Source of the DNA: Deltaproteobacteria bacterium
Lineage (GTDB): Bacteria; Desulfobacterota; Desulfuromonadia; Desulfuromonadales; JAAYDE01
Direction: 5' to 3'
NCBI GenBank assembly: GCA_012729375.1
Contig: JAAYDE010000035.1
Span: 3,222 to 67,221, forward strand
Length of the DNA stretch: 64,000 bases
The translations under genes and the position numbers were made by a program. This document shows, piece by piece, positions 3,766 through 34,992 of the stretch (positions are counted from its first letter, which is position 1; every line of letters begins with the position of its first letter). The notes below the pieces were generated by a model that was given only the letters and a program-made list of their open reading frames with translations, did not search any database and was not told the DNA's origin.

Positions 3766-6700
3766 TCACCTGAAATCGTTGATACGCACCGAGACCACTT
3801 TGGAGACACCCTGTTCTTCCATGGTGATGCCGTACAAGGCATCGCCGGTCCCCATCGTCCTTTTGTTGTGGGTGATGATAATAAACTGGGATTTTTTTGC
3901 CAATTCCTGAATCAGATCGTTGTAACGATCGGTGTTGGCGTCATCGAGGGGGGCATCCACCTCATCGAGAAGACAGAACGGGGACGGGCGGACCATAAAG
4001 GTGGCAAACACCAGGGCGATAGCGGTCAGCGCCTTCTCCCCCCCCGACAGCAACCCGAGTTCCTGAAGACGTTTTCCCGGGGGTTGGGCAATGATCTCAA
4101 CTCCGGTCTCGAGCAGATTGCCTTCGTCGGTCAGATGTAGTTCCGCCCTGCCGCCCGCGAAAAGACGCGGAAAAACCTGCTGAAAACGGCCGTTGATCTG
4201 CTCGAAGGCGTCCCGGAAGCGGCGGCAGGTGGTACTGTTGATGCGCTGGATGGTGGTTTCCAGGTCGGCTACCGAGGCAATGAGATCGTTCTGCTGGGCG
4301 ACCAGGAAAGTGAGCCTTTCCTCCAGGACCTGAAATTCCTCCAGGGCCGTCAGGTTGACCTCGCCGATACTGTCCAGCTGCCGCTGCAGTTCGACACGCC
4401 GTAGTTCCTGACGCTGGTCGTCCCAGTCCCCTTCCCCCTGCTGCTGCTCCAGGTCACAGCGGAAACGGTCCAGAATGGCCTGGCGCAGATGCCCCTTTTC
4501 CAGACTCTTCTCTTGGCGCTCCAGGCGCAGGCCATTGATGACCTCCCGCTCTCCGGCAACGCGGACGGCCAGGGAGCGGAGCTGCTCTTCAGTCACCCCC
4601 AGCGACCGCTTGCCGTCCATGGCGGCGGCTTCCAGGGCGGCCAGTTTGGCTTTCTCTTTTTCGCGCAGGGGAAGCATCTCCCGGTCACGATCCTCGAGAA
4701 CCTGCCGTTCCTCGGCCAGCCGTTTTCGTTCCCTTTCGTTTTCCGCCACACGTTCACCAAGGCGTTCCAGGCGCCCGCCAAGGTCGTCTGCCGTCTCGCG
4801 GCAGGTCTCCAGACGCTTGCCGAGGGAGCGGCGGCGCTCCACCCGGCCCGCCTGGCGCACCTTGTTGCCCGTTTCGGCCTCCCGCAGGCGTGCCACTTCG
4901 CGGCGGAAATCGTCGAAGTCTTCCTGGGCCGCCTGCAACTCCTTCTGCAGCCGGTCCTTTTCCCCCTCCCGAGCGGTGCTTTCCTGAAGGCTGTGCAAGG
5001 ACTCCTCCCGCAACCGCAGGCACTCCTCCTCCAGCTGTTGGTGTTCCAGAGCGAGCACCTCCAGGCGGTCGCGAACCCGCTTCCCGGCGTTGTCGAGGTC
5101 GGCCAGCAGCCGCTCGGCACGGGTTCCGGACTCCGTTTCACTGCGCAGGGCAGCAGCCACATCGCGGCTGCTTTTTTCCAGCGCACCGGCCTCCTCGTTT
5201 ACAACCTGGCGCTGGTGCTCCAGGCGGGTGCGCTTCAGTTCACACTCACGCAGCAGCGCCTCCAACTCGCGCCGCATCCTTTTTCGCGTCAGTACGCCGT
5301 TTCCCCGGGCGCCGGCGCCGACGACCAGTTCCCCCCGCCAGGAGAGCATTTCCCCCCGGCGATTGACCAGGGTCACGCCCTCGGGAATGCGGCCGTTCAG
5401 GAAGGGTTCCAGGCTCTCCACCCGATAGGCCCCCGCCACAAGGTTTTTCAGCAAGGGCCGGTCCTGGTCGGCGGCGGTCAGTAGTTCCGCTAAAGGAACG
5501 CCGCCTTCCCAGAAAGGAGACCGGCGCGGGACATCGAAAAAGAAACAAAAACGGTTTCTTACGTTCTGTTTCCGGAGCCAGGCAAGGATCAGCTCCGGCG
5601 CCGTTTCCTTCTCCACAACCCGGGCTTGGAGCCGTTCTCCCAGAAAGGTTTCGAAGAGCTGTTCCTCATCCCGGTCCACGGTGAGGCAGTCGACCACCCT
5701 TCTCGCCGCCCCGTCGGGAGGGTTTTCGCTCCCCCCGTTGCCGAACCCGGCCGTCGCGTCGATCTCGGCCAGGGCTTCCAGGCGGGAGCGCCCTGCCGCG
5801 TATTCCTCGCGGAGGGCGGCCAGCGCTTCCCGGTTGGTCGAAATAAGGGCATCCAGTTCCTTGCGCCGCTCGTGTATGGCGGATTCCTGCTTGGCCAGGC
5901 CCTCACGCCGGGACTGGGCCGCGGCCAGCGATGCCTCCGCCGCCGCCCTTTCACCCTCCAAATCCGCGCCCTTTTTCCTTTCCAGGACGGCATCTTCGCG
6001 GCTACGCCGCAGGCGTCCCTCGAGGTTGTCCAGACGCCGCTCGGCGTCTTCCCGTCGATTGGCGAAACGGGATATCTCGCTCAGGCAAGAAAACAGCTTC
6101 TCTCTGAGGGCGGTCACCGACCGCGATTGCCGTTCCTCGGCCTCCTGGAGATAGACTAGCTTTTCGGCGCCGGCCTGCAGTTCCCCCTCGGCGCCGATGA
6201 TCTCGGCGTCGAGGGTAGCCAGATCGGCGGTCAGGGCTTCGCGCTCTCGATGGAGTTCTTCCCGCCGCCTCTCAAGCTCCTTCCGTTCCTGGTCAAAGCG
6301 CTCACGGTCGAGGCCAAGACGTTCCGCCTCACGGCGGTTGAAGTCCAACCGCTGGGATCCCCGGTCGATATCGCCGGCCAGGCGGAGCAAGGCGCCGCGA
6401 GTCCGCTCAATCTCTTTCTCCCTTGCCGCCTGGACGGTTTTCAAGGCGACCAGCCCCTCTTCCCCACCGGCGATCTGCCCTTCCAATTCCTCCACAGCCT
6501 CGCGATGCTGCCCCTCGGCGACGGCAAGCTCATCCTCCTGCCCCTTGAGCAGCCGGTAGCGACGCTGGGCGAAACCGATGTCGATCGCTTTCAGCTCCCG
6601 TCGGCACTCGCGGAAACGTTCCGCTTTCTGGGCCTGGCGCTTGAGGATGGAGGCCTGGCGCCGCACCTCGGCGATCACATCCTCCAGGCGGCTGAGATTG

Positions 6701-7263
6701 AGCCGGGCCGCCTCGATCTTGCGCAATGCCGCTTTTTTGCGGACTTTGAATTTCATCACCCCGGCGGCATCTTCGATCAGGCTGCGGCGCTCCTCCGGCC
6801 TGTCGCGGAGGATCGTCTCGATATTCCCCTGCTCGATAATGGCATAGGATTTGGCGCCCACCCCCGTATCGAGAAAAAGTTCCTGGATGTCGAGACGCCG
6901 GCAGCGGCTTTTGTTGATGTAGTATTCGCTCTCCCCATCCCGAAAGAGCCGGCGCGTGACCATGATCTCGCTGCAATCCTGATAGGGCTCCGGCGCGATC
7001 CCGTCCTCGGCGGAGAGAATCAGGGAAACCTCGGCCATACCCAATCCCTTGCGGGCGGCGCTGCCCTTGAAGATGACATCCTCCATGGAGGAACCGCGCA
7101 GGTTTTTGGCGCTCTGCTCTCCCATAGCCCAGCGGATGGCGTCAAGAATGTTGCTCTTGCCGCAGCCGTTTGGCCCGACGACGACATTGATCCCCTCCTG
7201 AAAAGGCAGAGATACCTTGTCAACGAAGGATTTAAAGCCGATAATATCTACCTGTTTGATGCG
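3766..7263 (-). CDS. smc: Chromosome partition protein Smc
   Basis: Start trimmed to MRIKQVDIIGFKSF (ATG 7263). Walker A GPNGCGKSN, long coiled coils with a central hinge, signature LSGGEKALTAIAL, Walker B FCLLDEVDAPLD. Confidence 0.95.
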   Translation of the reverse strand, partial: RIKQVDIIGFKSFVDKVSLPFQEGINVVVGPNGCGKSNILDAIRWAMGEQSAKNLRGSSMEDVIFKGSAARKGLGMAEVSLILSAEDGIAPEPYQDCSEIMVTRRLFRDGESEYYINKSRCRRLDIQELFLDTGVGAKSYAIIEQGNIETILRDRPEERRSLIEDAAGVMKFKVRKKAALRKIEAARLNLSRLEDVIAEVRRQASILKRQAQKAERFRECRRELKAIDIGFAQRRYRLLKGQEDELAVAEGQHREAVEELEGQIAGGEEGLVALKTVQAAREKEIERTRGALLRLAGDIDRGSQRLDFNRREAERLGLDRERFDQERKELERRREELHREREALTADLATLDAEIIGAEGELQAGAEKLVYLQEAEERQSRSVTALREKLFSCLSEISRFANRREDAERRLDNLEGRLRRSREDAVLERKKGADLEGERAAAEASLAAAQSRREGLAKQESAIHERRKELDALISTNREALAALREEYAAGRSRLEALAEIDATAGFGNGGSENPPDGAARRVVDCLTVDRDEEQLFETFLGERLQARVVEKETAPELILAWLRKQNVRNRFCFFFDVPRRSPFWEGGVPLAELLTAADQDRPLLKNLVAGAYRVESLEPFLNGRIPEGVTLVNRRGEMLSWRGELVVGAGARGNGVLTRKRMRRELEALLRECELKRTRLEHQRQVVNEEAGALEKSSRDVAAALRSETESGTRAERLLADLDNAGKRVRDRLEVLALEHQQLEEECLRLREESLHSLQESTAREGEKDRLQKELQAAQEDFDDFRREVARLREAETGNKVRQAGRVERRRSLGKRLETCRETADDLGGRLERLGERVAENERERKRLAEERQVLEDRDREMLPLREKEKAKLAALEAAAMDGKRSLGVTEEQLRSLAVRVAGEREVINGLRLERQEKSLEKGHLRQAILDRFRCDLEQQQGEGDWDDQRQELRRVELQRQLDSIGEVNLTALEEFQVLEERLTFLVAQQNDLIASVADLETTIQRINSTTCRRFRDAFEQINGRFQQVFPRLFAGGRAELHLTDEGNLLETGVEIIAQPPGKRLQELGLLSGGEKALTAIALVFATFMVRPSPFCLLDEVDAPLDDANTDRYNDLIQELAKKSQFIIITHNKRTMGTGDALYGITMEEQGVSKVVSVRINDFR

Positions 7264-10400: not shown

Positions 10401-10574
10401 ACCGCCCATTTCCGCCTCACCGGCCAACGCGCCGACCCGCAGGTCGAGGCGATTCCGGTTTCCTCCCTGTCGGACAAGGCGGTGGGGGTCTTCCGCCGCA
10501 TTCTGCAACTCCCCGGCAGGATCATCACCAACCCTCGGGAATTGATGGGCGGACCCGGAAAAACCGCGCCGTGA
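7401..10574 (+). CDS. AsmA/YhdP-like large envelope protein
   Basis: 1057 aa. N-terminal anchor KRLPWIRLLLLVLVLTCAGGAAAF followed by an AsmA-type beginning (LAVGEVRLRFFPTPALDFKDI). The C-terminus GMPFDRITATGDLNQGILASENLLVDSTSMKLSLVGNLDL...ITAHFRLTG is typical of the AsmA_2/YhdP end. The start could be ATG 7416. Confidence 0.85.
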   Translation: MACRFMSKRLPWIRLLLLVLVLTCAGGAAAFLCVSRADLQPFLQRELSKALGRPLAVGEVRLRFFPTPALDFKDIAIESPGEVIAAAHIPHLHVQPEFLPLLQGKLLFNKITLQSPLLKIDLAHLGNGDAAAGPERKNISGPIKLKTLRLRQGNLTLIHSTDSRFPSPLLIPNVNGRLVMKADHPLILMVDGELSMDGVPAPFSGDFSWAGGDAWRRETLSGKLQLTRLPLPFLVRRIPGWAAVQAAGNLDIALRVQGTPAAGAVIDLAVTGDNAAVSAPGLAPNPLPVKKATLHAIWHSDRERELFSHLALDLGGPQVTGMAALEKRPEGLWLKTELASPPLTTADLPLAAAQSAPLQGKVAVKSCVYDGPVAAMARFPQDLAPLRAELRLTEIATKTPATTKLEKGEGTLFWEGNRLRLDNGRFVLGNSAGELSVIVDDLFNKSIPTKLQATGSLPLGALAVAIPEKNRNGLPVEGLLPFRAQGSEMEGAFRIDLEADLASLVKNLSGRGVLAADTPAALALSLDLNRETWRLQKGSLTCGPVALKASGDGRFQNLRDFRLRLDSDALLLAKIGAAFPQLHRWKLRGQAALNATLSGTREGPPRIDGELRLAGAGMRTTPMLADLNDINGRFLFSPEGIKADQVTGLLGTSPLRIVTTALSDFSNPVLTLHVQGPQIRAEELIFPSDQAYLYDVDGRLRIDAKELRFEKVDVTLGQGTKATVRGHVRNFKEPETWLHITSREAIIDEVIALWQRSVPKPKEPPRRKEVKLLIDMAVAKGSLDGFHFTQAVGQLRLKEGKIVIHPVDFRAGPGFGQGQIIVDPRPAGPAQLRISGHVENLDAATISRQVLEAESIATGSLSGDFYLECRAEKGFLTSSQGKFSAAIGNGVLKEFKTLAKVFSLLNVSQLFSMKLPDMSREGMPFDRITATGDLNQGILASENLLVDSTSMKLSLVGNLDLKNDRIDAVMGVRPLGTVDTVMSRIPIAGWVLGGEEKALITAHFRLTGQRADPQVEAIPVSSLSDKAVGVFRRILQLPGRIITNPRELMGGPGKTAP

Positions 10575-10591
10575 CCGTACTTCTTCCCCTG

Positions 10592-11302
10592 TCACCCCTT
10601 ACGCACGGCGGCGTGGAGAGTGACGATGCCGAAAGTCATCGGCGTCTGGGCGACAATTTCAAAACCGGCCTCTTCCATAAGATGGCGGAACTGGTCACAG
10701 TCGGGGAAATCCGCCACCGAGCGGGGCAGATAGCGGTAGGCCTCCCGCCGGGAGAAAAACCCGGCCAGCCAGGGAAGAAGTTTCCGGAAGTAGAAATGGT
10801 AGAGGACGCGAACGGGCGGATTTGCCGGAGTCGACAGTTCCAGCACCAGCAGTTTGCCGCCGGGGCGGAGCACCCGGCGCAACTCCTGCAGCCCCCTGGA
10901 GCGGTCGGCGACATTACGGATGCCGAAGGCGATAACCGCCCCGTCGAAGGTCCCGTCGCCATGGGGAATCGCCTCGCAGCGGGCGGCCACCGGAAAGATC
11001 CGCTGCCCCAGCCCGGCACGGCGGATCTTGGCGTTAGCACGCTGAAGCATTCCCGCCGAGAAATCGGCGGCAACGATGAGATCCGCCTGGGGATAGCGGC
11101 GGGCGATCTCCAGAGCGACATCGCCGGTGCCGCTGGCCATGTCCAGAATCCGCTGGCTGGCCTTGACATTCAGGCAGAGAACCGCTTTTCTCCGCCACCG
11201 GCGGTCGATGCCGAGGGAGAGAAGATGATTGAGGAGATCGTAACGGCCGGCGATGCCGTCAAACATCTCCCGAATGTCGTGGCCCTTGTTTTTCTCCACC
11301 AC
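10592..11302 (-). CDS. ubiE: Demethylmenaquinone / ubiquinone C-methyltransferase
   Basis: MFDGIAGRYDLLNHLLSLGIDRRWRRKAV and the SAM motif ILDMASGTGDVA. Start placed at GTG 11302 (..VEKNKGHDIREMFD), giving a ~236-aa protein. The track ORF to 11482 would overlap the divergent NUDIX gene. Confidence 0.88.
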   Translation of the reverse strand: MVEKNKGHDIREMFDGIAGRYDLLNHLLSLGIDRRWRRKAVLCLNVKASQRILDMASGTGDVALEIARRYPQADLIVAADFSAGMLQRANAKIRRAGLGQRIFPVAARCEAIPHGDGTFDGAVIAFGIRNVADRSRGLQELRRVLRPGGKLLVLELSTPANPPVRVLYHFYFRKLLPWLAGFFSRREAYRYLPRSVADFPDCDQFRHLMEEAGFEIVAQTPMTFGIVTLHAAVRKG

Positions 11303-11369
11303 CAATCCACAATCGGACAAAATTCGGCCTGTTGCCCTCGGCGCCAGGAGAAAAGGAGCGACAATAGCG

Positions 11370-11753
11370 ATGCAGCCCCTGATCGTCACCGCCGCCGTTT
11401 TAAGAAAAGACGGCCGGATTCTCATCACCCGCCGGCCGCAAGGGAAACCCCATGGAGGGTTATGGGAATTTCCCGGCGGCAAACTGGAAGGATACGAATC
11501 CCCCGAGGAGTGCCTGCGCCGGGAAATCGATGAAGAACTGGCCCTGGAAATCGACGTCGAAGGGATTTTCGAGGTCGTTCACCACCGCTACGAATGGGGG
11601 CCGGTGCTGATTCTGGCCTACGACTGCCGCCCCCGCGGCGGCGCCATCCGCAACCTGGGGGTGACCGAACATCGCTGGGTCTTGCCCGGGGAGCTGGCCC
11701 GCTTCCCGCTCCTTCCCGCCGACGTGCCGATCGTCAGGAAGCTGAGCAGGTAA
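11370..11753 (+). CDS. NUDIX hydrolase, MutT/NudG-like
   Basis: Start trimmed to MQPLIVTAAVLRKDGRILI. NUDIX box present: GGLWEFPGGKLEGYESPEECLRREIDEELAL. Confidence 0.9.
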   Translation: MQPLIVTAAVLRKDGRILITRRPQGKPHGGLWEFPGGKLEGYESPEECLRREIDEELALEIDVEGIFEVVHHRYEWGPVLILAYDCRPRGGAIRNLGVTEHRWVLPGELARFPLLPADVPIVRKLSR

Positions 11754-11762
11754 GTTCCGGCC

Positions 11763-12425
11763 TCAATCCCCAGTACCGGCCAGGGTTCCCGGCGGCGCCA
11801 GAAAGGCCCGCGCCGGAGCCGCCTCGCAATCCCTTATCCGCAGTGGCAAGCAAATCAAATCGTAGTTTCCAGGCTGCACTTTGCGCAGATCGAGCCCCTC
11901 CAGAATCCACACCCCCGCCGCCAATAGCCGCGGGTGGACATCCTGTTCCGGCTGCATGGAACCGATGGAGAGGTAATCGATCCCGACCAGGGCCACCCCC
12001 TTGGCGATGAGGAAAGCAGCTCCGTCGAGGGCCACAAAAGCGTAATCCGAACGGAATCTTTCCTCCTTCCAGTAAGACGAGTTGGCGGTTTTAAACAGCA
12101 CCCGGCGGCATCCCGGCAGCAGGGTATTGCTGAGAATCTGCGCACCGATTGCAGAAGTCCCGAGGATTTCGACAACCTGTACCGGCCCGTTGACGGCGGA
12201 GCAGGAAAAGGATTCCATATCGCCGGCGCCGGCGATAAAATGGCTCGGGGCGTCGAGATGGGTGCCGCAATGGACGCCCAGGCTCAGGGCCGAAACCGTG
12301 GCCTCGTCGCCGCCGGCCACTTCAGCAAGGCGGCTGAGACAAAACGGCGGATCGCCGGGCCAGACGGGAAGCTCGGGCCGGAGCGCCACCGAGATGTCGA
12401 TCCAGGGAATGCCGTTTTTCGCCAT
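11763..12425 (-). CDS. Cyclase family protein (kynurenine formamidase-like)
   Basis: 220 aa with the motif HCGTHLDAPSHF, characteristic of the putative cyclase/arylformamidase family. Confidence 0.8.
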   Translation of the reverse strand: MAKNGIPWIDISVALRPELPVWPGDPPFCLSRLAEVAGGDEATVSALSLGVHCGTHLDAPSHFIAGAGDMESFSCSAVNGPVQVVEILGTSAIGAQILSNTLLPGCRRVLFKTANSSYWKEERFRSDYAFVALDGAAFLIAKGVALVGIDYLSIGSMQPEQDVHPRLLAAGVWILEGLDLRKVQPGNYDLICLPLRIRDCEAAPARAFLAPPGTLAGTGD

Positions 12426-12428
12426 GCT

Positions 12429-12634
12429 TCAAAACCCTATTCCAGCGCAAAACCGCCGGGAACGCTGAAAGGCTTCCTGGGCGGTTTTGCCTTTTCCGGG
12501 CCGTCCGCCAAATACGTTCAACGGCGCAAACCCCTCGCCAGCCACCCAATGCCGCCGGCACTTCCCCGGACGAAGGGCAGAATCTTTCTTCGCGCCTTTC
12601 TTGCCCCGCTTGGCATCCTTTTGCCGTGAAGACA

Positions 12635-14347: not shown

Positions 14348-14686
14348 GTTCCTCAATTCCTCCTGGGCAACAGCCCCCTCGGTCCGGAAATAGACCGCCA
14401 AAAACATTCCGCCAAATATACAACCCTCTTCCCGCAAATACCAGGGATCCGCCCGTCGAGAAGGGGTTTACCCCTCTTCCCCGGTGACTGTCGGGAATTT
14501 TTACATCCCCGCCGGAACCGTGCCGCGACAGTCTCCGCTTTTCCCTGAAAAGAAATCATAAATGATTAATTTTAAAAGAATTTTTTGAGGTTCGTGGGCA
14601 TTTGATCGGTGTCGGAATTCTTTATAAATGGTCACCAATTCCCGGTCATCCCAAAATTTTATCAATAAATACAAGTGGTTATTTCT

Positions 14687-14702
14687 TGGCACGGCAAATG
14701 CT
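14687..14702 (+). promoter_or_regulatory. Putative sigma54 (-24/-12) promoter
   Basis: TGGCACG-GCAA-ATGCT compared with the consensus TGGCACG-N4-TTGCW. The GG and GC elements have exact spacing. It lies about 210 nt upstream of the PEP-CTERM gene in an AT-rich gap. Confidence 0.55.
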
Positions 14703-14910
14703 GAAGGTAATAGGTAAGCGCTTCACCATGTGCCGGAATAATTAAGAAGCAACCGCACCGCTTGAAAGCCGCCGCTCTGACATCCGTGGGGCATTTATAA
14801 AATACCGGATTCCTGTTTGGCGACGGCTCCCGGAAAGGTAGACGCTGCTCCCTTTAACAAAGAAAAAGATACGCTAACCGAAACGCAAAACCAAGGAAAG
14901 GATAAACAAA

Positions 14911-15606
14911 ATGATGAAGAAAATTAAATTGTTTTTGCTTCTTGCACCGTTATCATTGGTGTTTGCAGGCACCCTTTCCGCTTACCCCGTCAACGTGGGG
15001 GATACGCTCAACTTCAGCCTCGGCCAGGGCACCAGCCAATGGGTGAGCGCCAGCAACGGCTCGACTCTCTACGGTTGGGTGGGGGAATTATCCGTTTATC
15101 CCGCCGACAGTTCTGACCTGCTTTTCTCTACTTTCTGTCTGGAGATGGACGAAACCCTTGGAACAGGTCTGCCTTTCAGGGTTGGAAGCATCAACGACTA
15201 CGCCTCCCTTGGCGGAGCCAATACCAACGATAACGATCCCCTTTCCAAAGCCACAAAATGGCTTTACTGGAACTACGTGACCGGGAATCTCGATGATGCC
15301 GTTTCGGGCTATTCCTATGGCGCCAACAGCTCCGCCAATGCTCTTCAAAGAGCCGTCTGGTTCCTTGAAGAGGAAATCACCTCGGTGTCGGGACTGGCCG
15401 AATTACTTGCCAAGGCAGCTTTAGATGCCGAACTCGCTCAGGCCTACTCCGGCGATGTCGCCGTCATTAATCTTCTGTTCGCGGACGGAAGCAGGGCTCA
15501 GGACGTTCTGGTGGCCTCGGCTCCCGTACCCGAACCCTCCACCCTGTTGCTGCTGGGCGCCGGCATGGTCGGTGTTGCCCTGTCCCGCCGCCGGGCCAGA
15601 AAATAA
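14911..15606 (+). CDS. PEP-CTERM sorting-domain surface protein (thioester-domain-like motifs, see findings)
   Basis: Signal peptide MMKKIKLFLLLAPLSLVFAGTLSA. C-terminal VPEPSTLLLLGAGMVGVALSRRRARK is a PEP motif, TM helix and Arg-rich tail. AAGGAAAGG lies upstream of the ATG. Confidence 0.9.
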   Translation: MMKKIKLFLLLAPLSLVFAGTLSAYPVNVGDTLNFSLGQGTSQWVSASNGSTLYGWVGELSVYPADSSDLLFSTFCLEMDETLGTGLPFRVGSINDYASLGGANTNDNDPLSKATKWLYWNYVTGNLDDAVSGYSYGANSSANALQRAVWFLEEEITSVSGLAELLAKAALDAELAQAYSGDVAVINLLFADGSRAQDVLVASAPVPEPSTLLLLGAGMVGVALSRRRARK

Positions 15607-15634
15607 AGTTGCGTTGCCTCCGCCAAATCCATCC

Positions 15635-15662
15635 GGGAGATGCGCAGCATCTCCCTTTTTTT
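15635..15662 (+). terminator. Rho-independent terminator of the PEP-CTERM gene
   Basis: GGGAGATGC-GCA-GCATCTCCC followed by a T7 run, 29 nt after the stop codon. Confidence 0.8.
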
Positions 15663-15815
15663 GTCAAAGACAAAGCCGCGGATACATCGGACCGGGAACA
15701 ACCGCGCGGAACCTATTTTTCCCACAGCCCATTCCTCATATTGTTCCAATCCCGCCACCATGGTATTTTAGCCGATATCTGGCGACAAAATTCACCTGAT
15801 CGAAAAATTGACGAA

Positions 15816-17252
15816 ATGGCTGACGCCCAGATCCAATCCCTGCTGAAAAAAATTCCTGCCGTGGATCGTCTTCTCGATGAGCCGTCCATCATGGCCCTTC
15901 TTTCCCGCGCCCCTCGTGATCTGGTTACCGGTGCCGTTCGCGACGTTTTGGCCGAAATCCGTGAAAAAACAATTCATAACGGCCGTTCGCCGGAGGAAAA
16001 GCTGGATCCCCCCAACCTGGCGCTGAAAGCAGTACGTCTCGCCGAAAGCCGCCTGCGTCCCTCCCTGCGCCGGGTCGTCAACGCTACCGGCACCCTGATC
16101 CATACCAACTTGGGAAGAGCGCCATTGAGCGCCGCGGCACTCCGGGCCATCGCGGATATTGCCGTCTCCTATTCCAATTTGGAATACGATCTGCAATTGG
16201 GTCAAAGGGGAAAACGCCACACCCACGTGGAGGAACTGCTCTGCCGCCTGACCGGGGCCGAGGCGGCGACGGTGGTCAACAACAACGCCGGGGCCACACT
16301 GTTGGCGCTGGGCGCCCTGGCCGCCGGCAAAGAAGCCATCGTCTCGCGGGGGGAGCTGGTGGAAATCGGCGGCAGCTTCCGAATGCCGGAAGTGATGGCC
16401 ACCGGCGGTGTGGTCATGCGCGAGGTCGGCACCACCAACAAGACCCATCTGCGGGATTATTGCCAGGCCATCGGCCCGGAAACCGCCCTGCTCCTCAAGG
16501 TTCACACCAGCAATTACCGCATCGTCGGTTTCACCGAACAGGTTTCTTCCACGGACCTGGTCCGTTTGGGAAGACAAAAGGGGATTCCGGTGATGGAGGA
16601 CCTGGGAAGCGGCATGCTTCTCGATCTCTCATGCTACGGCCTGCCCAGGGAGCCGACGGTGCGGGAGACCGTCGAGGCGGGAATCGACATCCTTACCTTC
16701 AGCGGCGACAAACTGCTGGGCGGACCGCAGGCCGGGATCATCCTGGGGCGCAGGGAAGCCGTCGAACGTATCCGCCACCACCCTTTGGCCCGCGCCCTGC
16801 GTATCGACAAACTGACTCTGGCCGGTCTGGAAGCGACCTTGCGCCATTACCTCGATCGCGAGGAAGCGCTCCGGGAAATCCCGATTCTGCGCATGTTGGC
16901 CATGGCGCCGGAGAAAACCCGCGAGAAAAGCGAAAGGCTGCTCGCTCTGGTGCAAAAAAGGGGATGGGATTTCCAGGCGGAAGTCATCCCGGAAAGCTCG
17001 CGGGTCGGCGGCGGCGCCCTGCCACTCACCGAACTGCCCGGTTTCGCCGTGGCCGTCACCCCCCTGGGGATGAGCACCGCCCTTCTTGCCCAAAGACTCC
17101 GTGCCGCGGCGCCGCCGGTCATCGGCCGTATCCAGGAGAACCGTCTGCTGTTCAACCCGCGCACTCTGGCCGAAGGGGAAGAGGAACTGGTGGCTGCTTC
17201 CCTGAATCAGGTCCTGGGCCACAAATCCCCGGAAGAAAATCATCAGGACTGA
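15816..17252 (+). CDS. selA: L-seryl-tRNA(Sec) selenium transferase
   Basis: Start trimmed to MADAQIQSLLKKIPAVDRLL (ATG 15816). PLP-lysine region FSGDKLLGGPQAGII. Overall SelA pattern. Confidence 0.93.
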   Translation: MADAQIQSLLKKIPAVDRLLDEPSIMALLSRAPRDLVTGAVRDVLAEIREKTIHNGRSPEEKLDPPNLALKAVRLAESRLRPSLRRVVNATGTLIHTNLGRAPLSAAALRAIADIAVSYSNLEYDLQLGQRGKRHTHVEELLCRLTGAEAATVVNNNAGATLLALGALAAGKEAIVSRGELVEIGGSFRMPEVMATGGVVMREVGTTNKTHLRDYCQAIGPETALLLKVHTSNYRIVGFTEQVSSTDLVRLGRQKGIPVMEDLGSGMLLDLSCYGLPREPTVRETVEAGIDILTFSGDKLLGGPQAGIILGRREAVERIRHHPLARALRIDKLTLAGLEATLRHYLDREEALREIPILRMLAMAPEKTREKSERLLALVQKRGWDFQAEVIPESSRVGGGALPLTELPGFAVAVTPLGMSTALLAQRLRAAAPPVIGRIQENRLLFNPRTLAEGEEELVAASLNQVLGHKSPEENHQD

Positions 17253-20443: not shown

Positions 20444-23005
20444 TCAAACAATGGGCGGCTGGCTCGCCAATCCGCTTTCGTCCTTCTCAAAATACATATT
20501 GTTATCCGCTTCCTCCATCAGTTGTTCCAAAGTTTGCGGAGAAGAAGGATCGTAAACCGCACAACCGAAACACATCCCCTGAGGATACCGATATTCCGGA
20601 GAAAGATTGAGACGGGTTATTTTCTGCCGGATTTGATGAAGCCGTTCCTCGGCATGCCGTTTGTCGCAACCATAAAAAACAATCATGAATTCATCCCCGC
20701 CCATCCGGTAAATCTTGTCGGAAGAGCGAATCGCCTCGCGGATAAGATTGACCATGGTCACCAGATAATTGTCCCCTTCCTTGTGCCCGAAGGTGTCGTT
20801 GACATACTTGAGATCGTTGACGTCCCCGTAACACAGCACGAGAGGCTCCCCGGCGAGGCGCGCAGTTTCCATCATTTCTTCCACTTCGGGCTGAAAGTAT
20901 TTACGGACAATGGTTCCCGTCAGATGATCGATCCGGGCATCCTTCTGCATTTCGGCGACCCTTCTTTCATTGCGCCGGATACGGTGCTGCTGCAGGCAAA
21001 TCCCGCCGCAAAGCAGTAAAAAAACCGTCCCAAGGAAGACGGCCTTCCAGCGGTGTTCCCGCCAGAACCCTCTCGGAGCGTTGATGACGATACTTCCTTC
21101 CGGCAAGAGATGGGCGGCAATCCCAAAGCGCTCGAGGACCTCATGATCAAAAAAAGTGCGAAAAGGATGACTCCTGATCAGCGGGATCTGGGAAGCCTTT
21201 TCCCCATCCAATATTCGTGATCCCAGATGGGCGGCAAGGGTCCCCTGGTCATAACTGTAGGCCACGCTGCCCCCGACCACGCCCAGACCCAAGGTGTATT
21301 CGGAAAGGCTGAAGACCGGACGATTGCAGGCCGAAGTGATCGCCCGCAGGCTTTTTTCGATGCTGTAACGAACGTTGTTGCCATCCACATAATAGTTGAG
21401 AAAAAGGACGGCCGTTCGTCGATCAAGGGTGCTCAATTCCGCGAGCAATTCCTTCATCCCCATGGCGGGCACGAACCTGAAAGCGACAGGTTCTTTGATC
21501 CGGGGGAGCAGCTCTTCGATACGCCGCTGCATCTTAAGACCCGTTGTGGTGTGGTCGTTAATGAGCAGGATGGTATTTACCTGCGGATCAATCCTGAGAA
21601 TGGCGGCGACGGAACCCTGAAGATCGAAGGATTCAAGAACTCCGGTCATGTTCTCCTGATGGGGCGATTCCTGGTGGGACAGATGGTTGACACCGCAAAA
21701 GACAACGGGGGTGTCCTTGAACAGAATGGTGCGGAATTCGCGTAAAAAATCGAAGGCGTTGTCATCGGTGGAGATGACGAGGTCGAGGGTGCGATTGCCA
21801 TACTTGTAACGGAAAAGTTCAAACAATTGATGCACATACATCTTGTTGAAAAACCGCTTGGTGTCCATGTATTCAACAAAAATTTCGCCGATATCCCCAC
21901 GTTTCCGGAGAACCTCCTTCAACCCCCGGGCCATATTGATGGTCCAGCTGAACTCAGGATCATAGGAATGGAGGATCAGCACATCTTTTTGTCCACCCTC
22001 TTTATGATTCAGAATGATTGCGTCGCCAGGAAGGGAGGCGATGCTCAGTCCGAAACGCACCATTTGGCGGTAATCGAAAACCGGCTTCATCGGCCCGGGG
22101 ATGACGGGCATCGTGGCCGGGTCTTCACCGGCCAGCACTCTCAGGGCGATCTTTCCCGTCAGTGTGCCGTGAGCATAGCCTTCGTTGATGATGCCCCCCG
22201 TTACACCGTGATTGAGATAAAACTCGCTGAAACAGTAGACAGGAACCGTGCTGGCCTGGGAAATCCGGGGCATGACGGTTTCCGGGCTGTAGTAGTTCCC
22301 GGCGCAGTCCCGAAAGTAATTCAGCAAAAAAACCACTGTATCCCGGGGAAGGCGAGAAAGGTGAGATTCCAGTTCGGGAAGAGGCAATCCTTCCACAAAT
22401 TCGAACTCCAAATGCCCGGAAAAAACAGAGATGGCATCTTTTACTTCCTGCAGGCTGATCTGTCCGCTGACGGTGACATCGGTGACCACCGTCACTTTCT
22501 TCAATCCCGGATGAAGGCGTTGGATCAAGGCAAGGTTATCGGCGACGCGATGAACTTCCGTCACACCTGTGGCTTTTTTGAAGCCCTCCAGCATCTCCGG
22601 CTTGAAATTGTTGACACCGCAAAAAACCACCGGCGCGCCTCTGAAAAGCTGGTTTCGGAACCTTTTCAAAAAAGAAAAGGCGTTATCGTCCACTGCAACA
22701 ATCAGATCGAAATCCCACTTTTCATACTTGGCCCGGTAAAGAGAAAAGAGCGTTGAAAAGCTTGTTTCGGGAGGCACTCTCTTGGTGTCCATGTATTCAA
22801 CGACGACATAGGCGTCGGGGAGAGCTTTTTTTATTGTATTTTCGATACCATAGACTTCACCGTCGGACCACAGGTAGCCCATGTGGTAGGAGTTGATGAT
22901 CAAAACCTTCGCCCCGGCACTAACCGCAGCCTTTCCCGAGAGGGGAACGAAAAGCAGCAAAGCCAAAAACAATGCGGTCCTCAGCATTAAAAATCCCGTT
23001 TTCAT
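20444..23005 (-). CDS. Diguanylate cyclase with two tandem periplasmic ABC-substrate-binding-like sensor modules
   Basis: Signal/anchor sequence, then two ~300-aa repeats (VLIINSYHMGYLWSD...EYMDTKR and VLILHSYDPEFSWT...EYMDTKR). A TM helix follows (AVFLGTVFLLLCGGICL), then a GGDEF domain (RMGGDEFMIVF) with an RSSD I-site five residues upstream. Confidence 0.9.
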   Translation of the reverse strand: MKTGFLMLRTALFLALLLFVPLSGKAAVSAGAKVLIINSYHMGYLWSDGEVYGIENTIKKALPDAYVVVEYMDTKRVPPETSFSTLFSLYRAKYEKWDFDLIVAVDDNAFSFLKRFRNQLFRGAPVVFCGVNNFKPEMLEGFKKATGVTEVHRVADNLALIQRLHPGLKKVTVVTDVTVSGQISLQEVKDAISVFSGHLEFEFVEGLPLPELESHLSRLPRDTVVFLLNYFRDCAGNYYSPETVMPRISQASTVPVYCFSEFYLNHGVTGGIINEGYAHGTLTGKIALRVLAGEDPATMPVIPGPMKPVFDYRQMVRFGLSIASLPGDAIILNHKEGGQKDVLILHSYDPEFSWTINMARGLKEVLRKRGDIGEIFVEYMDTKRFFNKMYVHQLFELFRYKYGNRTLDLVISTDDNAFDFLREFRTILFKDTPVVFCGVNHLSHQESPHQENMTGVLESFDLQGSVAAILRIDPQVNTILLINDHTTTGLKMQRRIEELLPRIKEPVAFRFVPAMGMKELLAELSTLDRRTAVLFLNYYVDGNNVRYSIEKSLRAITSACNRPVFSLSEYTLGLGVVGGSVAYSYDQGTLAAHLGSRILDGEKASQIPLIRSHPFRTFFDHEVLERFGIAAHLLPEGSIVINAPRGFWREHRWKAVFLGTVFLLLCGGICLQQHRIRRNERRVAEMQKDARIDHLTGTIVRKYFQPEVEEMMETARLAGEPLVLCYGDVNDLKYVNDTFGHKEGDNYLVTMVNLIREAIRSSDKIYRMGGDEFMIVFYGCDKRHAEERLHQIRQKITRLNLSPEYRYPQGMCFGCAVYDPSSPQTLEQLMEEADNNMYFEKDESGLASQPPIV

Positions 23006-29782: not shown

Positions 29783-30565
29783 ATGCTTAAAGTCAACAAC
29801 ATCGAAGTGGTCTACAACGACGTCATCCTGGTGATCAAGGGTCTTTCCCTGCATGTCCCGGAAGGGCGCATCGTAGCCCTTCTGGGCTCCAACGGGGCCG
29901 GCAAATCGACCACCCTCAAGGCGATTTCCGGCTTGCTGCGCCCCGATAACGGCGAGATCACCGACGGCGATATCACTTTTCGGGGGCAAAGAATCGACCG
30001 CAAGGATGCCGCCGACATCGTCAAAAGCGGCCTCTTCCAGGTCATGGAGGGGCGCAGGGTATTCAAGGATTTGACGGTGGAGGAAAATTTGATCGCAGGC
30101 GGCTACACCCAGAAATCATCCGCCACCGCCGCCAATCTGGAACGGGTCTACCACTATTTCCCCCGCCTCAAGGAGCGCCGCCGTCAGGTTTCCGGTTACA
30201 TGAGCGGCGGGGAACAACAGATGCTGGCCATAGGCCGAGCCTTGATGGCCGGCCCTAAAATGGTCCTCCTCGACGAACCCTCCCTGGGCCTCTCCCCCCT
30301 CTTGGTCAAGGAGATATTCCATATCATCCGCATGCTTAACGAAAAAGAGCAGACCACCATCTTGCTGGTGGAGCAGAACGCCAACATGGCCCTGACCGCT
30401 TCCCACTACGGCTACATCATGGAAAACGGCCGCGTCGTTCTCGACGGCCCCAGCAAACAGTTGAAGGAAAATGATGACGTACGGGAGTTCTATCTGGGCA
30501 TGGCGGGACAAAAAAGCTTCCGCGAGGTGAAACATTACCGAAGGAGGAAAAGATGGCTTTCATAG
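29783..30565 (+). CDS. HAAT-family ABC transporter ATP-binding protein (LivF-like)
   Basis: Walker A GSNGAGKST, signature MSGGEQQMLAIGRAL, Walker B VLLDEPSLGL. Confidence 0.9.
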   Translation: MLKVNNIEVVYNDVILVIKGLSLHVPEGRIVALLGSNGAGKSTTLKAISGLLRPDNGEITDGDITFRGQRIDRKDAADIVKSGLFQVMEGRRVFKDLTVEENLIAGGYTQKSSATAANLERVYHYFPRLKERRRQVSGYMSGGEQQMLAIGRALMAGPKMVLLDEPSLGLSPLLVKEIFHIIRMLNEKEQTTILLVEQNANMALTASHYGYIMENGRVVLDGPSKQLKENDDVREFYLGMAGQKSFREVKHYRRRKRWLS

Positions 30566-31704
30566 GAGATTTCACCAGGCTGGCCGAAAGCCTGCGGGAA
30601 AACCGCGACCATCCCCTTCTGCGCTTCCTTCTGGGACGCTCCGGCATGGCTGCGGAAGATATCCAGAGCTACGAGGATTTCATCCGCATCACCCCTTTCA
30701 CCAAAGAGGAGCTGTCCCGGTTGCAGAGCGAAAACCCCCCCTTCGGCGGCCTTTTCGACACCGCGACGATCACCAAGGTCTTTCAGTCCCCCGGCCCCAT
30801 CTACAACGTCAAGGGTGCGCCCTGGGAACATTACCGCTTCAACAAAGCCCTGAGCATGGCGGGATTTGTCCGGGGCGATGTCGTCCTCAACACCTTTTCC
30901 TACCATCTTTCCCCGGCCGGAGAGATGTTCGACGAAGCCCTGCAAAAAATCGGTGCACTGGTCGTTCCCCTGGGACCGGCCGATTCGGAAAAAGCCGCCG
31001 CCATCGCCGCCGCCACCGGCGCCGACGGCTTCATCGGCACCCGCTCGTTCCTGCTGAAGGTACTGGAGAATCTCGGCGAAGGGGGGCATCTGCAAAAAGC
31101 CTACCTGATTGCCGAAAAGCTGACCGAGGCCGACCGCCTCCTGTTTGCCCAGAAATTCAACGTTGCTGCCTTTCAGGGATACGGGATCGCCGAAGTCGGC
31201 CTCATCGCCACCGAAGACTGCCGACGGGACGGCCTGCTCGTGGACACAGAAGCTCTGTTTGTGGAACTGTTGGAACCCGCTACCGGGAATCCCGCGGCTG
31301 AGGGCACCCTCGGCGAAGTGGTGGTCACCTTTTTCAGCCCTGCCACTCCTTTCCTGCGTCTCGCCACCGGAGACCTCGCTGCCATCCATTCCAGCCGCCC
31401 CGATTGCCTGGCAGGCATTTTCGGACGCGCCGACAGCTCCGTCAAAACAAAAGGGGTCTTTATTCACTTCTGGCAATTTGAAACGTTTTGCGGTCAACTG
31501 GAGACCAAAGCGAAACTTGTGGTGGCTAGCGACGGGCAGGGAATGGACAGGCTGGTTCTGAAAATTCCCCGGGCTTTGCATGAAAGGACCGTAGTTGCAT
31601 CCTTTAAAAAGATCTTTGGCCTCACTTTGAGCCAGGTGGACGTGGATGATAAAATTGACAGCAATGAGATTGAGGACCAACGGACCCATTTGAGCAAGCG
31701 GTGA
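30553..31704 (+). CDS. Phenylacetate-CoA ligase (PaaK/F390 synthetase)-like protein with degenerate P-loop
   Basis: 383 aa, colinear by eye with E. coli PaaK. Shared elements: ITPFTKEEL..PPFGGLF; FQGYGIAE matching YGLSE; GRADSSVKTKGV matching GRSDDMLIIRGV. At the SSGTTGKP position it reads FQSPGPIYN. Confidence 0.8.
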   Translation: MAFIGDFTRLAESLRENRDHPLLRFLLGRSGMAAEDIQSYEDFIRITPFTKEELSRLQSENPPFGGLFDTATITKVFQSPGPIYNVKGAPWEHYRFNKALSMAGFVRGDVVLNTFSYHLSPAGEMFDEALQKIGALVVPLGPADSEKAAAIAAATGADGFIGTRSFLLKVLENLGEGGHLQKAYLIAEKLTEADRLLFAQKFNVAAFQGYGIAEVGLIATEDCRRDGLLVDTEALFVELLEPATGNPAAEGTLGEVVVTFFSPATPFLRLATGDLAAIHSSRPDCLAGIFGRADSSVKTKGVFIHFWQFETFCGQLETKAKLVVASDGQGMDRLVLKIPRALHERTVVASFKKIFGLTLSQVDVDDKIDSNEIEDQRTHLSKR

Positions 31705-31713
31705 GGAGATGTC

Positions 31714-32397
31714 ATGTTTGTAAGGGACTGGATGAGCCGGGAAGTGATCACCGTGGAGGAGGATGCCCCTCTTCTCGACGCCGTACACATGATGAAGGAT
31801 CACCATATCCGCCAGCTGCCCGTCGTCAAAAAGGGCTGCCTAGCGGGAATCATTACCGAAAAGGACATCAAGGAATTCTCCCCCTCCAGGGCGAGCACCC
31901 TTGATATCTATGAAATGCACGCTGTGCTGGCCAGGACAACCATTCACGAGGTGATGTCCCCCAAGGTCGTCACCGTCTCTCTCGATGATCCGATCGAAAA
32001 AGCGGCCCTGATCCTCCGCGATCGACATTTCGGCGGTTTGCCGGTTGTCGACTCCCAGGGCCGCCTGGTGGGCATTATAACCACCATCGATATTTTTGAC
32101 GTCTTTGTCGAGGCCATGGGCATGCGCACCCCCGGGTCGCGGGTCAGTGTCGAAGTGGAAGACCGGCCCGGAGCCATTGCCGAAATGACCCAAGTTTTCA
32201 AAACCCACGGCATCAATATCGTCAGCCTGGCGACTTTTTTCCTAAAGGGGGAGGACCGCAGACTCCGCGAGGTCGTTTATCGGATCGCCTGTCCCGACCC
32301 CGCCCAAATCGACCATGCGGTGGCAGAGCTCAGACAAAGAAATTTCCGCATTACCAGTCTGCTCAACAGTGATCAGCTATTGCTGCTGGAGCGGTGA
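31714..32397 (+). CDS. CBS-pair plus ACT domain protein (AcuB-like)
   Basis: Two CBS repeats (VRDWMSREVITV..., IHEVMSPKVVTV...GGLPVVD..GRLVGIIT) followed by an ACT-like C-terminus (SRVSVEVEDRPGAIAEMTQVFKTHGINIVSL). Confidence 0.85.
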   Translation: MFVRDWMSREVITVEEDAPLLDAVHMMKDHHIRQLPVVKKGCLAGIITEKDIKEFSPSRASTLDIYEMHAVLARTTIHEVMSPKVVTVSLDDPIEKAALILRDRHFGGLPVVDSQGRLVGIITTIDIFDVFVEAMGMRTPGSRVSVEVEDRPGAIAEMTQVFKTHGINIVSLATFFLKGEDRRLREVVYRIACPDPAQIDHAVAELRQRNFRITSLLNSDQLLLLER

Positions 32398-32797: not shown

Positions 32798-33352
32798 TTA
32801 AAAATAAGGACTGAGACGATTTATAAGTTTTTCTCCAACACCTCTGACTCTACGTAAGGCCGCCAGAGAACCAAAATCGCCATTTTTTTGACGCTCCTCC
32901 TCTATGCGCCGGGCTATTTCCCTTCCGATACCGGGCAAAGCATCCCAATCCTCAGCATTCATGCGATCCGGATGCAAAGGAATAAAAAGCGCCATGCGCA
33001 TTGCTGCAGGCATCCAACTTCTTTTGATTTCAATGACTTGTCCCCCATTCCAAGCGATATCGAGAGTTTCTCCGGAAGTTAATGGGAGAGAGAGAAGGGA
33101 GGGGGGAAAAGAATCAAAGGAAACCCCAGGAAGCGTCATTTGGATGACGCTTCCTGGGGTGATACCGTCATAAAATTGATGAACCCCCGATTGCGGAAAA
33201 CCGGCACCGAGGTAAACAAAAACCACAGGAGCAGCGGTTGATGGCGAGGGGGGAGACCCGCCGCCGCTCAGGGGCCAAAGCTTGGTGGCCCGCCAGGCCC
33301 ATACCGCCAGCAGCAAAACGACCAGCAGGCGGATACCCCGGGGAAAGATCAC
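32798..33352 (-). CDS. comEA: ComEA family DNA-binding protein (membrane-anchored, helix-hairpin-helix)
   Basis: N-terminal TM helix [13 protein letters not shown]-terminal HhH pair [42 protein letters not shown]. The GTG start overlaps the cimA stop (GTGA). Confidence 0.85.
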
Positions 33353-34944
33353 TCGTTGCTATCCTCGTGTTTGGGCCGCTGATAGTCTTTGAGAAGTTTG
33401 TACTGGATGGCATCCACCAGAGCCTGGTAGGAAGCTTCGATGATGTTGTCGCTGACCCCCACCGTCCCCCACCGTGCGTCTTTGTCCCCCGATTCAATGA
33501 GTACCCTGGTGACCGACGCGGTTCCTTTTCCGGCCGGCAGAACCCGCACCTTGAAGTCGATGAGGCGCATCTCTTTAAGTTGGGGATAGAAGCGCTCCAA
33601 GGCCTTTCGCAAGGCGTTGTCGAGGGCGTTGACCGGACCGTTGCCTTCGGCGGCCGTATGTTCGATGTTTCCCCCCACCTTGACCTTGATGGTCGCCTCG
33701 GCCAAAGGAGGGTCTTCTCCGCTCGGCTTGGCATCGATGACCCGGAAACCCATGATGGTGAAAAAATTGCGCAGGGTGCCGAGGGCTTTGCGCATGAGGA
33801 TTTCGAAGGTGGCCTCGGCCCCTTCGAACTGGTAGCCGTAGTTCTCCAATTTCTTCAGGTTGTCCAGGATTTCCACGGTCACCGGATCCTTGCTGTCGAG
33901 ATCGATGTTGAATTCCCGTGCTTTAGCAAGGATGTTGGATCGGCCGGAAAGATCCGAGATCAGTACGCGGGTGCTGTTGCCGACCCTATCGGGGCGGATA
34001 TGTTCGTAGGTTTCGGGATGCCTCTGAATGGCCGAAACATGTACCCCGCCCTTATGGGCGAAGGCCGATGTGCCGACATAGGGTTGGTGCTTGTCGGGAA
34101 TCAGGTTGGCGATCTCATAAATATAATTGGAAATTTCCCGGAGTTTTGCCAATTGCTCGTCGGCGATGCAGTGCTTGCCCATTTTGAGTTGCAGGCTGGG
34201 AATGATGGAGCAGAGATTGGCGTTGCCGCAACGCTCTCCGAACCCGTTGATGGTACCCTGGACATGGACGATGCCGTTCTCCACCGCGACAATGGCATTG
34301 GCGACGGCACAACCGCTGTCGTTGTGGGTATGAATGCCCAGGGGCGTGGAGACAACCTCCCGGACCCGCTGGATAACAGGGGCCATCTGGTGGGGAAGAG
34401 TGCCGCCGTTGGTATCGCACAAAACAAGGCAGTCCGCGCCCGCCTCCTCGGCCGCCTGCAGGGTTTTCAGGGCGTATTCGGGATTGGCCCGGTAGCCGTC
34501 GAAGAAATGCTCGGCATCATAGATGACCTCGCCGACATTTTCCTTGAGAAACTTGAGGGAATCGAAAATGAGTTCAAGGTTCTCTTCGAGGCCGATCCGC
34601 AACGCCTCGCGCACGTGGAAATCCCAGGTTTTGCCGAAAATGGTGACGGCATCCGGCTCGGCCTGGATCAGGGTGCGCAGGTTGTGGTCCTTGTCGGGTG
34701 TTGTCTTGGCCCGCCGGGTAGCCCCAAAGGCGGCGATCTTGGCCTGTTTCAAAGGGATGTTTTTGATCTCTTTGAAGAAAGCGATGTCCTTGGGATTGGA
34801 ACCCGGCCAACCTCCTTCGATGTAATGTATTCCCAGTTCATCAAGTTTTTCGGCAATGCGAATTTTGTCGGTGACCAGGAAGGCGATATCCTCGGCCTGG
34901 GTCCCGTCGCGCAGGGTGGTGTCGTACATTTGAATCAAATCCAT
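33349..34944 (-). CDS. cimA: (R)-citramalate synthase (LeuA/CimA family)
   Basis: Start set to ATG 34944 ([20 protein letters not shown]) because AAAGGAG lies 7 nt upstream; the track ORF starts at 34974. It has HxH-type motifs (GIHTHNDSG) and the long C-terminal regulatory domain. Sits next to aspartate kinase, as I recall for Geobacter cimA. Confidence 0.88.
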
Positions 34945-34992
34945 GACGGCTCCTTTGTCCCGTTTTGTCGACATGCAGGGGTTGAAAAATGC

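Follow-up and report, generated by a model that had tools for sequence, protein, structure and literature searches.

The question raised by the stretch of DNA analysed here (64,000 nucleotides of contig JAAYDE010000035.1 from a Deltaproteobacteria bacterium, hereafter the window) is whether a small exported protein, encoded by a confirmed 231-aa open reading frame (ORF) at 14911-15606 on the forward strand, carries the kind of internal Cys-Gln thioester familiar from Gram-positive surface adhesins. The original prediction, made from the letters of the sequence, had drawn attention to a signal peptide, a single cysteine (Cys76), the motif ALQ146RAVWFLE located 70 residues further on, and a PEP-CTERM tail, all of which were found in the translation. 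Its central idea, a Gram-positive-type thioester domain mounted on a PEP-CTERM protein, was upheld by the family profile, the fold and the register of the motifs; its choice of partner glutamine was not, and the match to curated models that it had named as a check was absent. The explanation favoured, and considered fairly probable, is that the protein is a minimal stalkless thioester domain (TED), a homologue of the class I TEDs borne by LPXTG adhesins in Gram-positive bacteria, delivered by Sec export followed by PEP-CTERM/exosortase sorting, with a predicted thioester linking Cys76 to Gln197, a residue of a third conserved motif that the original prediction had missed.

The protein proved to belong to a large family. 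A first search returned five relatives and a profile search 284, and a scan of 1.84 billion cluster representatives then recorded 2,526 members at E ≤ 1e-3, the weakest of which probably include tail-only matches, and 946 at E ≤ 1e-10, these last being representatives of 50%-identity clusters. The taxa represented are Desulfuromonadales, Syntrophales, Desulfobulbales, Planctomycetota and Acidobacteriota, with Desulfuromusa, Pelobacter propionicus, Syntrophotaleaceae, Syntrophales, Desulfobulbaceae, Desulfosediminicola, Vicinamibacterales, Planctomycetaceae, Pirellulales and Phycisphaerales as the named sources. Members share a common layout of 200-250 aa consisting of signal peptide, domain and sorting tail: among 253 sequences the tail was of the PEP type in 223, VPDSG-like in 11, a PEP variant in 11, and of another type or absent in the remaining eight. 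The source labels carried by members ("PEP-CTERM sorting domain-containing protein", "Ice-binding protein" and "hypothetical protein") are accompanied by the fact that the mature domain of the family is covered by no Pfam or NCBIfam model.

Two side observations concern the extent of the family. Tandem paralogues were present at two Phycisphaerales loci (4255-5055 with 5526-6317 at L007; 4931-5827 with 6056-6973 at L009), while single copies were recorded at the examined loci in the window, Pelobacter and Desulfosediminicola. The model NF038129 ('NF038129 family PEP-CTERM protein') aligned to residues 161-229 of the window protein with 32.5 bits relative to a cut-off of 65, in an alignment that starts some 45 residues before the PEP tail, so that the hairpin bearing Gln197 is included; NF038129 may represent a sister family whose C-terminal half is the same.

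Conservation was assessed in 253 aligned sequences, mostly representatives of 50%-identity clusters, using the numbering of the window protein. Cys76 and Trp150 were each present in every one of these sequences, and Gln197 in all 251 that extend so far, the two gaps being fragments that end before this position. Gln146 was retained in 252 of the 253 (the exception being a single Lys), Phe75 in 250 and Asn187 in 245, and a set of acidic residues was almost as constant: Glu153 (251/253), Glu78 (247/253), Asp109 (246/253), Glu155 (244/253) and Glu81 (238/253). The mature part contained exactly one cysteine in 225 of the 253 sequences; there was neither a conserved second cysteine nor a conserved histidine anywhere in the alignment, the most frequent His column reaching just 25%. 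The proposal that the Cys and helical motifs are meaningful, together with the co-conservation of Cys76 and Gln146 that had been suggested as a check, was thereby borne out: the near-invariance of Cys76, Trp150 and Gln146 across the family is not a chance occurrence.

The three most constant positions fall within motifs that correspond in turn to those described for TEDs. The first, F-C76-L-E (within STFCLE; 15133-15144, with Cys76 itself at 15136-15138), fits the TED motif [YFL]-C-Phi-zeta, and identifies Cys76 as the predicted thioester cysteine. The second, L-Q146-R-A-V-W150-F-L-E (15343-15369), fits the helical motif TQxxPhiW, and is predicted to lie beside the thioester without bonding. 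The third, A-Q197-D-V-L (15496-15510, with Gln197 at 15499-15501), fits the strand motif Phi-Q-zeta-Phi-Phi, and supplies the predicted thioester glutamine. All are on the forward strand, and the Cys motif, the helical motif and the strand Gln motif of TEDs are each represented in the one protein.

The assignment of the bonding glutamine departs from that originally proposed, which had paired Cys76 with Gln146. TQxxPhiW, formerly written TQxA(I/V)W, is the third and helical motif of TEDs; the thioester can form without its Gln and Trp, which serve only to hydrogen bond to the backbone of the thioester Cys, and no residues of TEDs other than the bonding Cys and Gln are universally conserved (Walden 2015; Miller 2018). 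In characterised TEDs the glutamine that forms the bond is that of the C-terminal strand, as exemplified by the pair Cys138-Gln267 of CpTIE (Walden 2015). Since the published work makes the helical glutamine non-essential and the strand glutamine bond-forming, the earlier pairing is wrong, and the equivalent of the bonding residue in the window protein is Gln197. Judged from sequence, the reactive pair is most likely Cys76-Gln197 rather than Cys76-Gln146.

The spacings between these residues are consistent with that assignment. The distance from Cys to helix Gln is 70 residues in the window protein and 69 in the Ligilactobacillus salivarius TED, and that from Cys to strand Gln is 121 residues in both, compared with 129 (Cys138 to Gln267) in CpTIE. 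Because Gln197, and not Gln146, corresponds to the bonding glutamine, the reservation originally entered about an unusually short Cys-Gln spacing falls away. The hairpin from Asn187 to Gln197 spans ten positions (+10), and its counterparts, LNLYLPDDSYYQ of CpTIE and LNIYVKDDSTYQ of the L. salivarius TED, are equally long.

A thioester between Cys76 and Gln146 of the QxAVW motif might nevertheless be argued from the near-invariance of both residues and from the proximity of the helix glutamine to the thioester cysteine in known TEDs. It is regarded as very improbable: every characterised TED bonds through the Gln of its C-terminal strand and can dispense with the helix Gln and Trp in doing so, and in alignment Gln146 falls on the helix Gln while Gln197 falls on the bonding Gln267 of CpTIE. 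The pattern of substitution is also instructive, in that the single change at Gln146 and the absence of any at Gln197 fit the published finding that only the strand glutamine is essential. The member concerned (P0155), the only one with Lys at the position equivalent to Gln146, retains both Cys76 and Gln197, as expected were the helix Gln dispensable. It follows from the known geometry that the distance from Cys76 SG to Gln146 CD, originally put forward as a structural test, would mislead, because in real TEDs the helix Gln adjoins the thioester Cys without bonding to it. An attempt to use mean-field direct coupling analysis (252 sequences) as a proxy for the Cys76-Gln197 pairing was dominated by indel artefacts, and the invariant residues gave no signal.

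Evidence for the reading of the protein as a TED with a Cys76-Gln197 thioester was then provided by fold. The AlphaFold2 model returned a predicted local distance difference test (pLDDT) value of 91.2 at full length, and of 94.6 for the mature domain with a predicted template modelling score (pTM) of 0.91. The model is composed of six strands and four helices, of which three are long and one is short, and shows the six-stranded antiparallel barrel plus three-helix bundle of the TED fold. Within it, Cys76 is located in a strand or bridge at residues 72-76, which is followed by a strand at 89-95 and a helix at 113-123; Gln146 and Trp150 lie in a helix at 139-152, and Gln197 in a strand at 195-202. 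When the model of the mature domain was compared with the PDB by Foldseek, the top seven matches were all 5A0G or 5A0D, the structures of CpTIE-TED, with probabilities of 0.80-0.99, template modelling (TM) scores of 0.44-0.49 and 155-164 of 180 columns aligned; the next match had a probability of 0.09, and nothing else was credible. These TED matches were obtained once the signal-peptide and PEP-CTERM helices had been removed from the model.

That outcome bears on the possibility that the protein is a secreted cysteine enzyme (an amidase, for instance, or a protease of papain-like or transglutaminase-like type) with Cys76 as its nucleophile. Such an activity would account for a single invariant cysteine in an exported protein, but no protease or transglutaminase match was obtained in Pfam, NCBIfam or the PDB, and Foldseek yielded TEDs alone. 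A Cys-His enzyme in particular was rejected because no histidine is conserved in the family. A cysteine enzyme of any kind is accordingly rated as most improbable.

Independent support for a TED came from profile comparison. When a profile of 116 family sequences was compared with 177,635 PDB sequences, the best three matches were 5A0G and 5A0D (CpTIE-TED) and then 5DCQ (FNE). The resultant alignment of about 90 residues placed ALQxAIW of the family on TQRAVW of 5A0G and the strand Gln on Gln267 of CpTIE, with helix and strand glutamines both in register; LQ146RAVW was also aligned to TQLAIW of 5DCQ, and A-Q197-D-V-L to YYQNLL of 5A0G. Local comparison by hhalign of the family with a TED profile built from four sequences (the L. 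salivarius TED, CpTIE, 4C0Z and SfbI) generated one colinear alignment of 140 columns across all three motifs (score 27.0, P 0.0015), in which Cys76 was paired with the Cys of AYCINE and Gln197 with Gln187 of TYQDLL, both from the L. salivarius TED. Column-shuffled TED profiles scored 11.5 ± 2.1 with a maximum of 22.9, none of 200 reaching 27.0, and the reversed profile scored 10.8. Comparison of the family with a single TED sequence aligned the Cys motif alone (probability 1.8%), and the global mode of hhalign returned a degenerate alignment of four columns.

Each of these sequence statistics is marginal when taken alone, and it might be supposed from this that an unrelated PEP-CTERM domain has come to resemble a TED in a few short motifs by convergence or chance. 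Set against that supposition are the occurrence of three motifs in the right order, with the right spacing and in the right secondary-structure context, the selection of the same TED when the whole PDB was searched independently with the sequence profile and with the structural model, and the failure of any of the 200 shuffles to attain the real hhalign score. Coincidence is thus considered quite improbable as an explanation, and when the individually modest statistics are taken together with the invariant residues, homology to TEDs is very likely.

The curated models give a different picture. The window protein produced no match, even at E ≤ 10, to PF08341, TIGR03934 (TQXA_dom) or NF012162 ("thioester-forming surface-anchored protein"), and formal membership of the TED class by curated models fails for that reason; a significant match in just such a scan of the 231-aa protein had been the first check suggested originally, and its absence, taken literally, is one of the results that had been named as refuting the idea. 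The compact TED from an L. salivarius plasmid, used as a positive control, scored 67.8 bits with PF08341, 59.5 with NF012162 and 51.5 with TIGR03934. At the level of the family, PF08341 matched 35 of the 116 members, none of which reached the cut-off of 22 bits (the members inspected scored 10-16 bits, and the best E-value was 4e-4); these matches lay over the helical motif. TIGR03934 matched three of the 116 at E 0.017. Single-sequence searches of Pfam, NCBIfam and the PDB with the window protein detected the PEP-CTERM tail only and no TED; a match to dihydrolipoyl dehydrogenase at E 0.035 in a single-sequence search was dismissed as spurious. Nothing relevant was obtained from the PDB with a profile of five sequences, and nothing was found in a search with a 92-aa fragment of CpTIE. 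A broad TED profile could not be assembled from plasmids because tblastn with TED queries reached only L. salivarius. The homology of the window protein to TEDs is visible only at the level of family profile and structure.

Several of these results weigh against the reading of the protein as a thioester-forming TED. They comprise the lack of any match to the three curated models and the gap between this outcome and the scores of the L. salivarius control; the E-value of 0.03 for the match of the family profile to the PDB; the hhalign probability of 16.7%; the Foldseek TM score of 0.48, just below the usual fold threshold of 0.5, with a root-mean-square deviation of about 5 Å (the helical subdomain of the TED is mobile according to the published structure); and the fact that Foldseek with the full-length model returned noise only (TM 0.1-0.17) and no TED. 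To these must be added the substitution of Leu for the Thr of TQxxPhiW in the window protein, correctly noted at the outset and found to be shared by most family members, the helical motif itself being common but not universal in TEDs. Finally, the conserved acidic residues Glu78, Glu81, Asp109, Glu153 and Glu155 are without counterpart in Gram-positive TEDs, so that the chemistry could differ.

These acidic residues (window 15133-15144 and 15343-15375) are 94-99% conserved, and occupy positions that are filled by Asn, Ser or Thr in the Gram-positive TEDs of solved structure. An acidic pocket may be formed by them next to the predicted thioester, an arrangement which would suit a protonated amine. 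The same residues, along with the failure of the curated TED models to recognise the protein, provide the case for a domain that retains the TED fold but forms no thioester, Cys76 serving instead as a free thiol, for example in metal or redox chemistry with the acidic cluster, or as a residue in non-covalent binding. Against this stands the observation that the residues never substituted in the family are exactly the universal bonding Cys and Gln of TEDs, at the same spacing, and the alignment offers neither a conserved His nor a second Cys from which a metal site might be built. A thioester-free TED is on balance judged unlikely.

If the predicted Cys76-Gln197 thioester does form, the sequence of events would be expected to resemble that in known TEDs. 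After export and folding, the Cys76 thiol would attack the side-chain amide of Gln197 spontaneously and with loss of NH3 (-17 Da), and the resultant thioester would be buried at the interface of barrel and helices, where Gln146 and Trp150 on the central helix would pack against the Cys76 backbone and buttress the thioester. A primary amine of the target, candidates for which are a Lys side chain, a matrix amino sugar or a polyamine, would then attack the thioester, becoming attached to Gln197 through an amide bond and freeing the Cys76 thiol. The target would thereby be joined covalently and probably reversibly to the cell surface or matrix; by analogy with SfbI-TED, the linkage may be both reversible and pH-dependent. 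A role in forming covalent attachments inside flocs, biofilms or aggregates of cells, although speculative, fits the lifestyles of the hosts.

Comparison with established systems serves to place the domain more closely. Like the class I TEDs of Gram-positive TIE adhesins, for example CpTIE-TED (5A0G), it measures about 170-180 aa, combines a six-stranded barrel with a three-helix bundle, and presents [YFL]C-Phi-zeta, TQxxPhiW and Phi-Q-zeta-Phi-Phi in that order, with an Asn-to-Gln hairpin of equal length; CpTIE-TED is the best PDB match of the family both by sequence profile and by structure. It differs from CpTIE-TED in an identity of only about 15%, in scores below the thresholds of the curated models and in the Leu preceding the helix Gln, and from class I TEDs generally in its own acidic residues and outer-membrane hosts and in a model without an obvious alpha0 helix between the strand at 89-95 and the helix at 113-123. 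Class II TEDs (BaTIE, SaTIE and EfmTIE86; 6FWV, 6FWY and 6FX6) likewise have no alpha0 and share the core fold of the upper lobe, but carry an inserted beta-sandwich that provides the bonding Gln by way of a slipknot hairpin, whereas the model of the 180-aa window domain has no extra sandwich. With neither the alpha0 of class I nor the insertion of class II, the window protein looks like a bare core TED.

TIE proteins as such bear the TED at the tip of a stalk of isopeptide or ester domains and have an LPXTG anchor handled by sortase, Gram-positive TEDs in general being mounted on long stalks or spacers; the window protein is a single domain with no stalk and a PEP-CTERM tail, and is thus not a TIE protein. 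A closer counterpart in layout is WP_250201141 of L. salivarius ('Cys-Gln thioester bond-forming surface protein'), in which a single N-terminal TED likewise follows directly after the signal peptide and the spacings are nearly equal. There a Ser-rich spacer, about 200 aa long, leads from the domain to an LPQTG anchor, in contrast to the nine or so residues that separate Gln197 from PEP in the window protein. Complement C3 and alpha-2-macroglobulin, the latter also known from Gram-negative bacteria, similarly use a Cys-Gln thioester for the covalent capture of nucleophiles. They differ in being very large proteins of an unrelated fold with Cys and Gln three apart in CGEQ, and the window protein had no sequence or structural match to either in the PDB, profile and Foldseek searches. 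Taken from sequence and model, the window protein is best filed as a putative exosortase-sorted minimal TED, a variant of the known TED class.

The remaining parts of the gene are those of a typical exported and sorted protein. A Shine-Dalgarno sequence, AGGAAAGGA, was read directly at 14894-14902 on the forward strand, 8 nt 5' of the ATG. The signal peptide MMKKIKLFLLLAPLSLVFAGTLSA (residues 1-24; 14911-14982) has a basic N-terminus, a hydrophobic core and an LSA/Y cleavage-type site followed by YP, its n-, h- and c-regions being typical by eye and the AlphaFold2 model showing a helix at residues 2-18; A24-Y25-P26 is invariant among close homologues. The mature module that resembles a thioester domain (six beta strands, a three-helix bundle and one short helix) occupies residues 25-204 (14983-15522), and is succeeded at 15523-15606 by the PEP-CTERM sorting signal PVPEPSTLLLLGAGMVGVALSRRRARK and stop codon, with VPEP from residue 206. 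The tail scored 33.4 bits with PF07589 (cut-off 20.7) and 28.1 bits with TIGR02595 (cut-off 16), and the PEP motif, hydrophobic helix and basic cluster expected of a PEP-CTERM substrate are all present. Only nine residues lie between Gln197 and the first Pro of PEP, the family median being eight.

In the layout read from its sequence the protein resembles other PEP-CTERM substrates, for example the PepA flocculation family (NF033554), in which a small domain of unknown function lies between a signal peptide and a PEP-CTERM tail and whose genes are scattered away from the exosortase; matches of the window protein to NF033554 and to other NCBIfam PEP-CTERM families were by contrast confined to the tail and below the cut-offs. 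In PEP-CTERM systems most substrates are usually encoded at a distance from the exosortase gene. In agreement with the original account, no exosortase was detected among the 30 largest ORFs of the window, which also contains no second PEP-CTERM protein.

The gene is a singleton located between a divergent gene for glutaminyl-tRNA synthetase and selA, an arrangement that recurs in several metagenome assemblies, and it looks monocistronic. The upstream region of about 470 nt (14438-14910, between glnS and the TED-like gene) contained no Rfam match at E ≤ 1 and no sigma-70-like promoter match. Downstream, at 15635-15662 on the forward strand and 29 nt past the stop codon, a terminator scan and direct reading identified an intrinsic terminator-like hairpin, GGGAGATGCGCAGCATCTCCC, with a 9-bp stem followed by TTTTTTT, a consensus match only and of a kind that does not exceed shuffle expectation in this region. 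The listed selA ORF (15609-17252) begins at a TTG just past the TED-like gene and runs through this terminator, and SelA has 478 aa in other assemblies; the true start is likely to be an ATG near 15817 (MADAQIQ...). Beyond the local arrangement there is no conserved gene neighbourhood, the window, Pelobacter propionicus and Desulfosediminicola copies being found in unrelated, housekeeping settings. The Pelobacter propionicus copy, in the cultured strain DSM 2379, lies at about 2,755,786-2,756,463 of CP000482, and the Desulfosediminicola copy belongs to D. flagellatus, likewise a cultured carrier.

The window as a whole is core chromosome, with genes for SMC, FtsY, an AsmA/YhdP-like protein, LptD, FtsH, TilS, ArgRS and RpoA, trp genes and a Liv-type ABC transporter, and LptD, together with the AsmA/YhdP-like protein, indicates that the cell has an outer membrane. 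Two loci relevant to nucleotide signalling were also recorded. One, at 20444-23005 on the reverse strand, encodes an 853-aa protein in which a PF04392 ABC-type periplasmic substrate-binding domain is joined to a C-terminal GGDEF diguanylate cyclase, possibly a ligand-sensing cyclic di-GMP synthase, 5 kb from the surface-protein gene. The other consists of a CdaA-type diadenylate cyclase (DAC domain; 41571-42383, reverse strand) adjoining a YbbR-like protein (40775-41512, reverse strand), the usual cdaA-cdaR pair, from which it follows that the organism makes cyclic di-AMP. Four ORFs had no Pfam match at E ≤ 1e-5 (30535-31806, reverse strand, 423 aa; 33238-35115, forward, 625 aa; 10571-11533, forward, 320 aa; 11934-12629, forward, 231 aa), and some of these, which overlap ORFs on the opposite strand, may not be genes.

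In the literature that was searched, which extends to a preprint of 2026, TEDs are reported from Gram-positive Firmicutes and Actinobacteria alone, mostly in connection with host adhesion, and no paper in that literature joins thioester domains with PEP-CTERM or exosortase, the clusterings of InterPro, ECOD and AlphaFold-DB standing outside the comparison. It can be suggested, tentatively and with more doubt than confidence, that with the window protein a large and hitherto unrecognised branch of TEDs in outer-membrane bacteria has its first example: a minimal core which, after processing by exosortase, would have its C-terminus fixed about eight residues from the warhead, and which would function as a two-ended covalent cross-linker of envelope or exopolysaccharide to amine-bearing partners in flocs, biofilms and syntrophic aggregates. 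Were this cross-linker correctly envisaged, it would represent the first defined chemistry for a PEP-CTERM cargo.

As the family illustrates, a whole branch of the TED fold escapes the curated models. If members of the family do form the predicted bond, they would provide a very small (~170 aa) and stalk-free TED scaffold and a testable molecular function for a family of PEP-CTERM cargo, and covalent adhesion chemistry would be widespread in free-living outer-membrane anaerobes, among the Desulfuromonadales, Syntrophales, Planctomycetota and Acidobacteriota.

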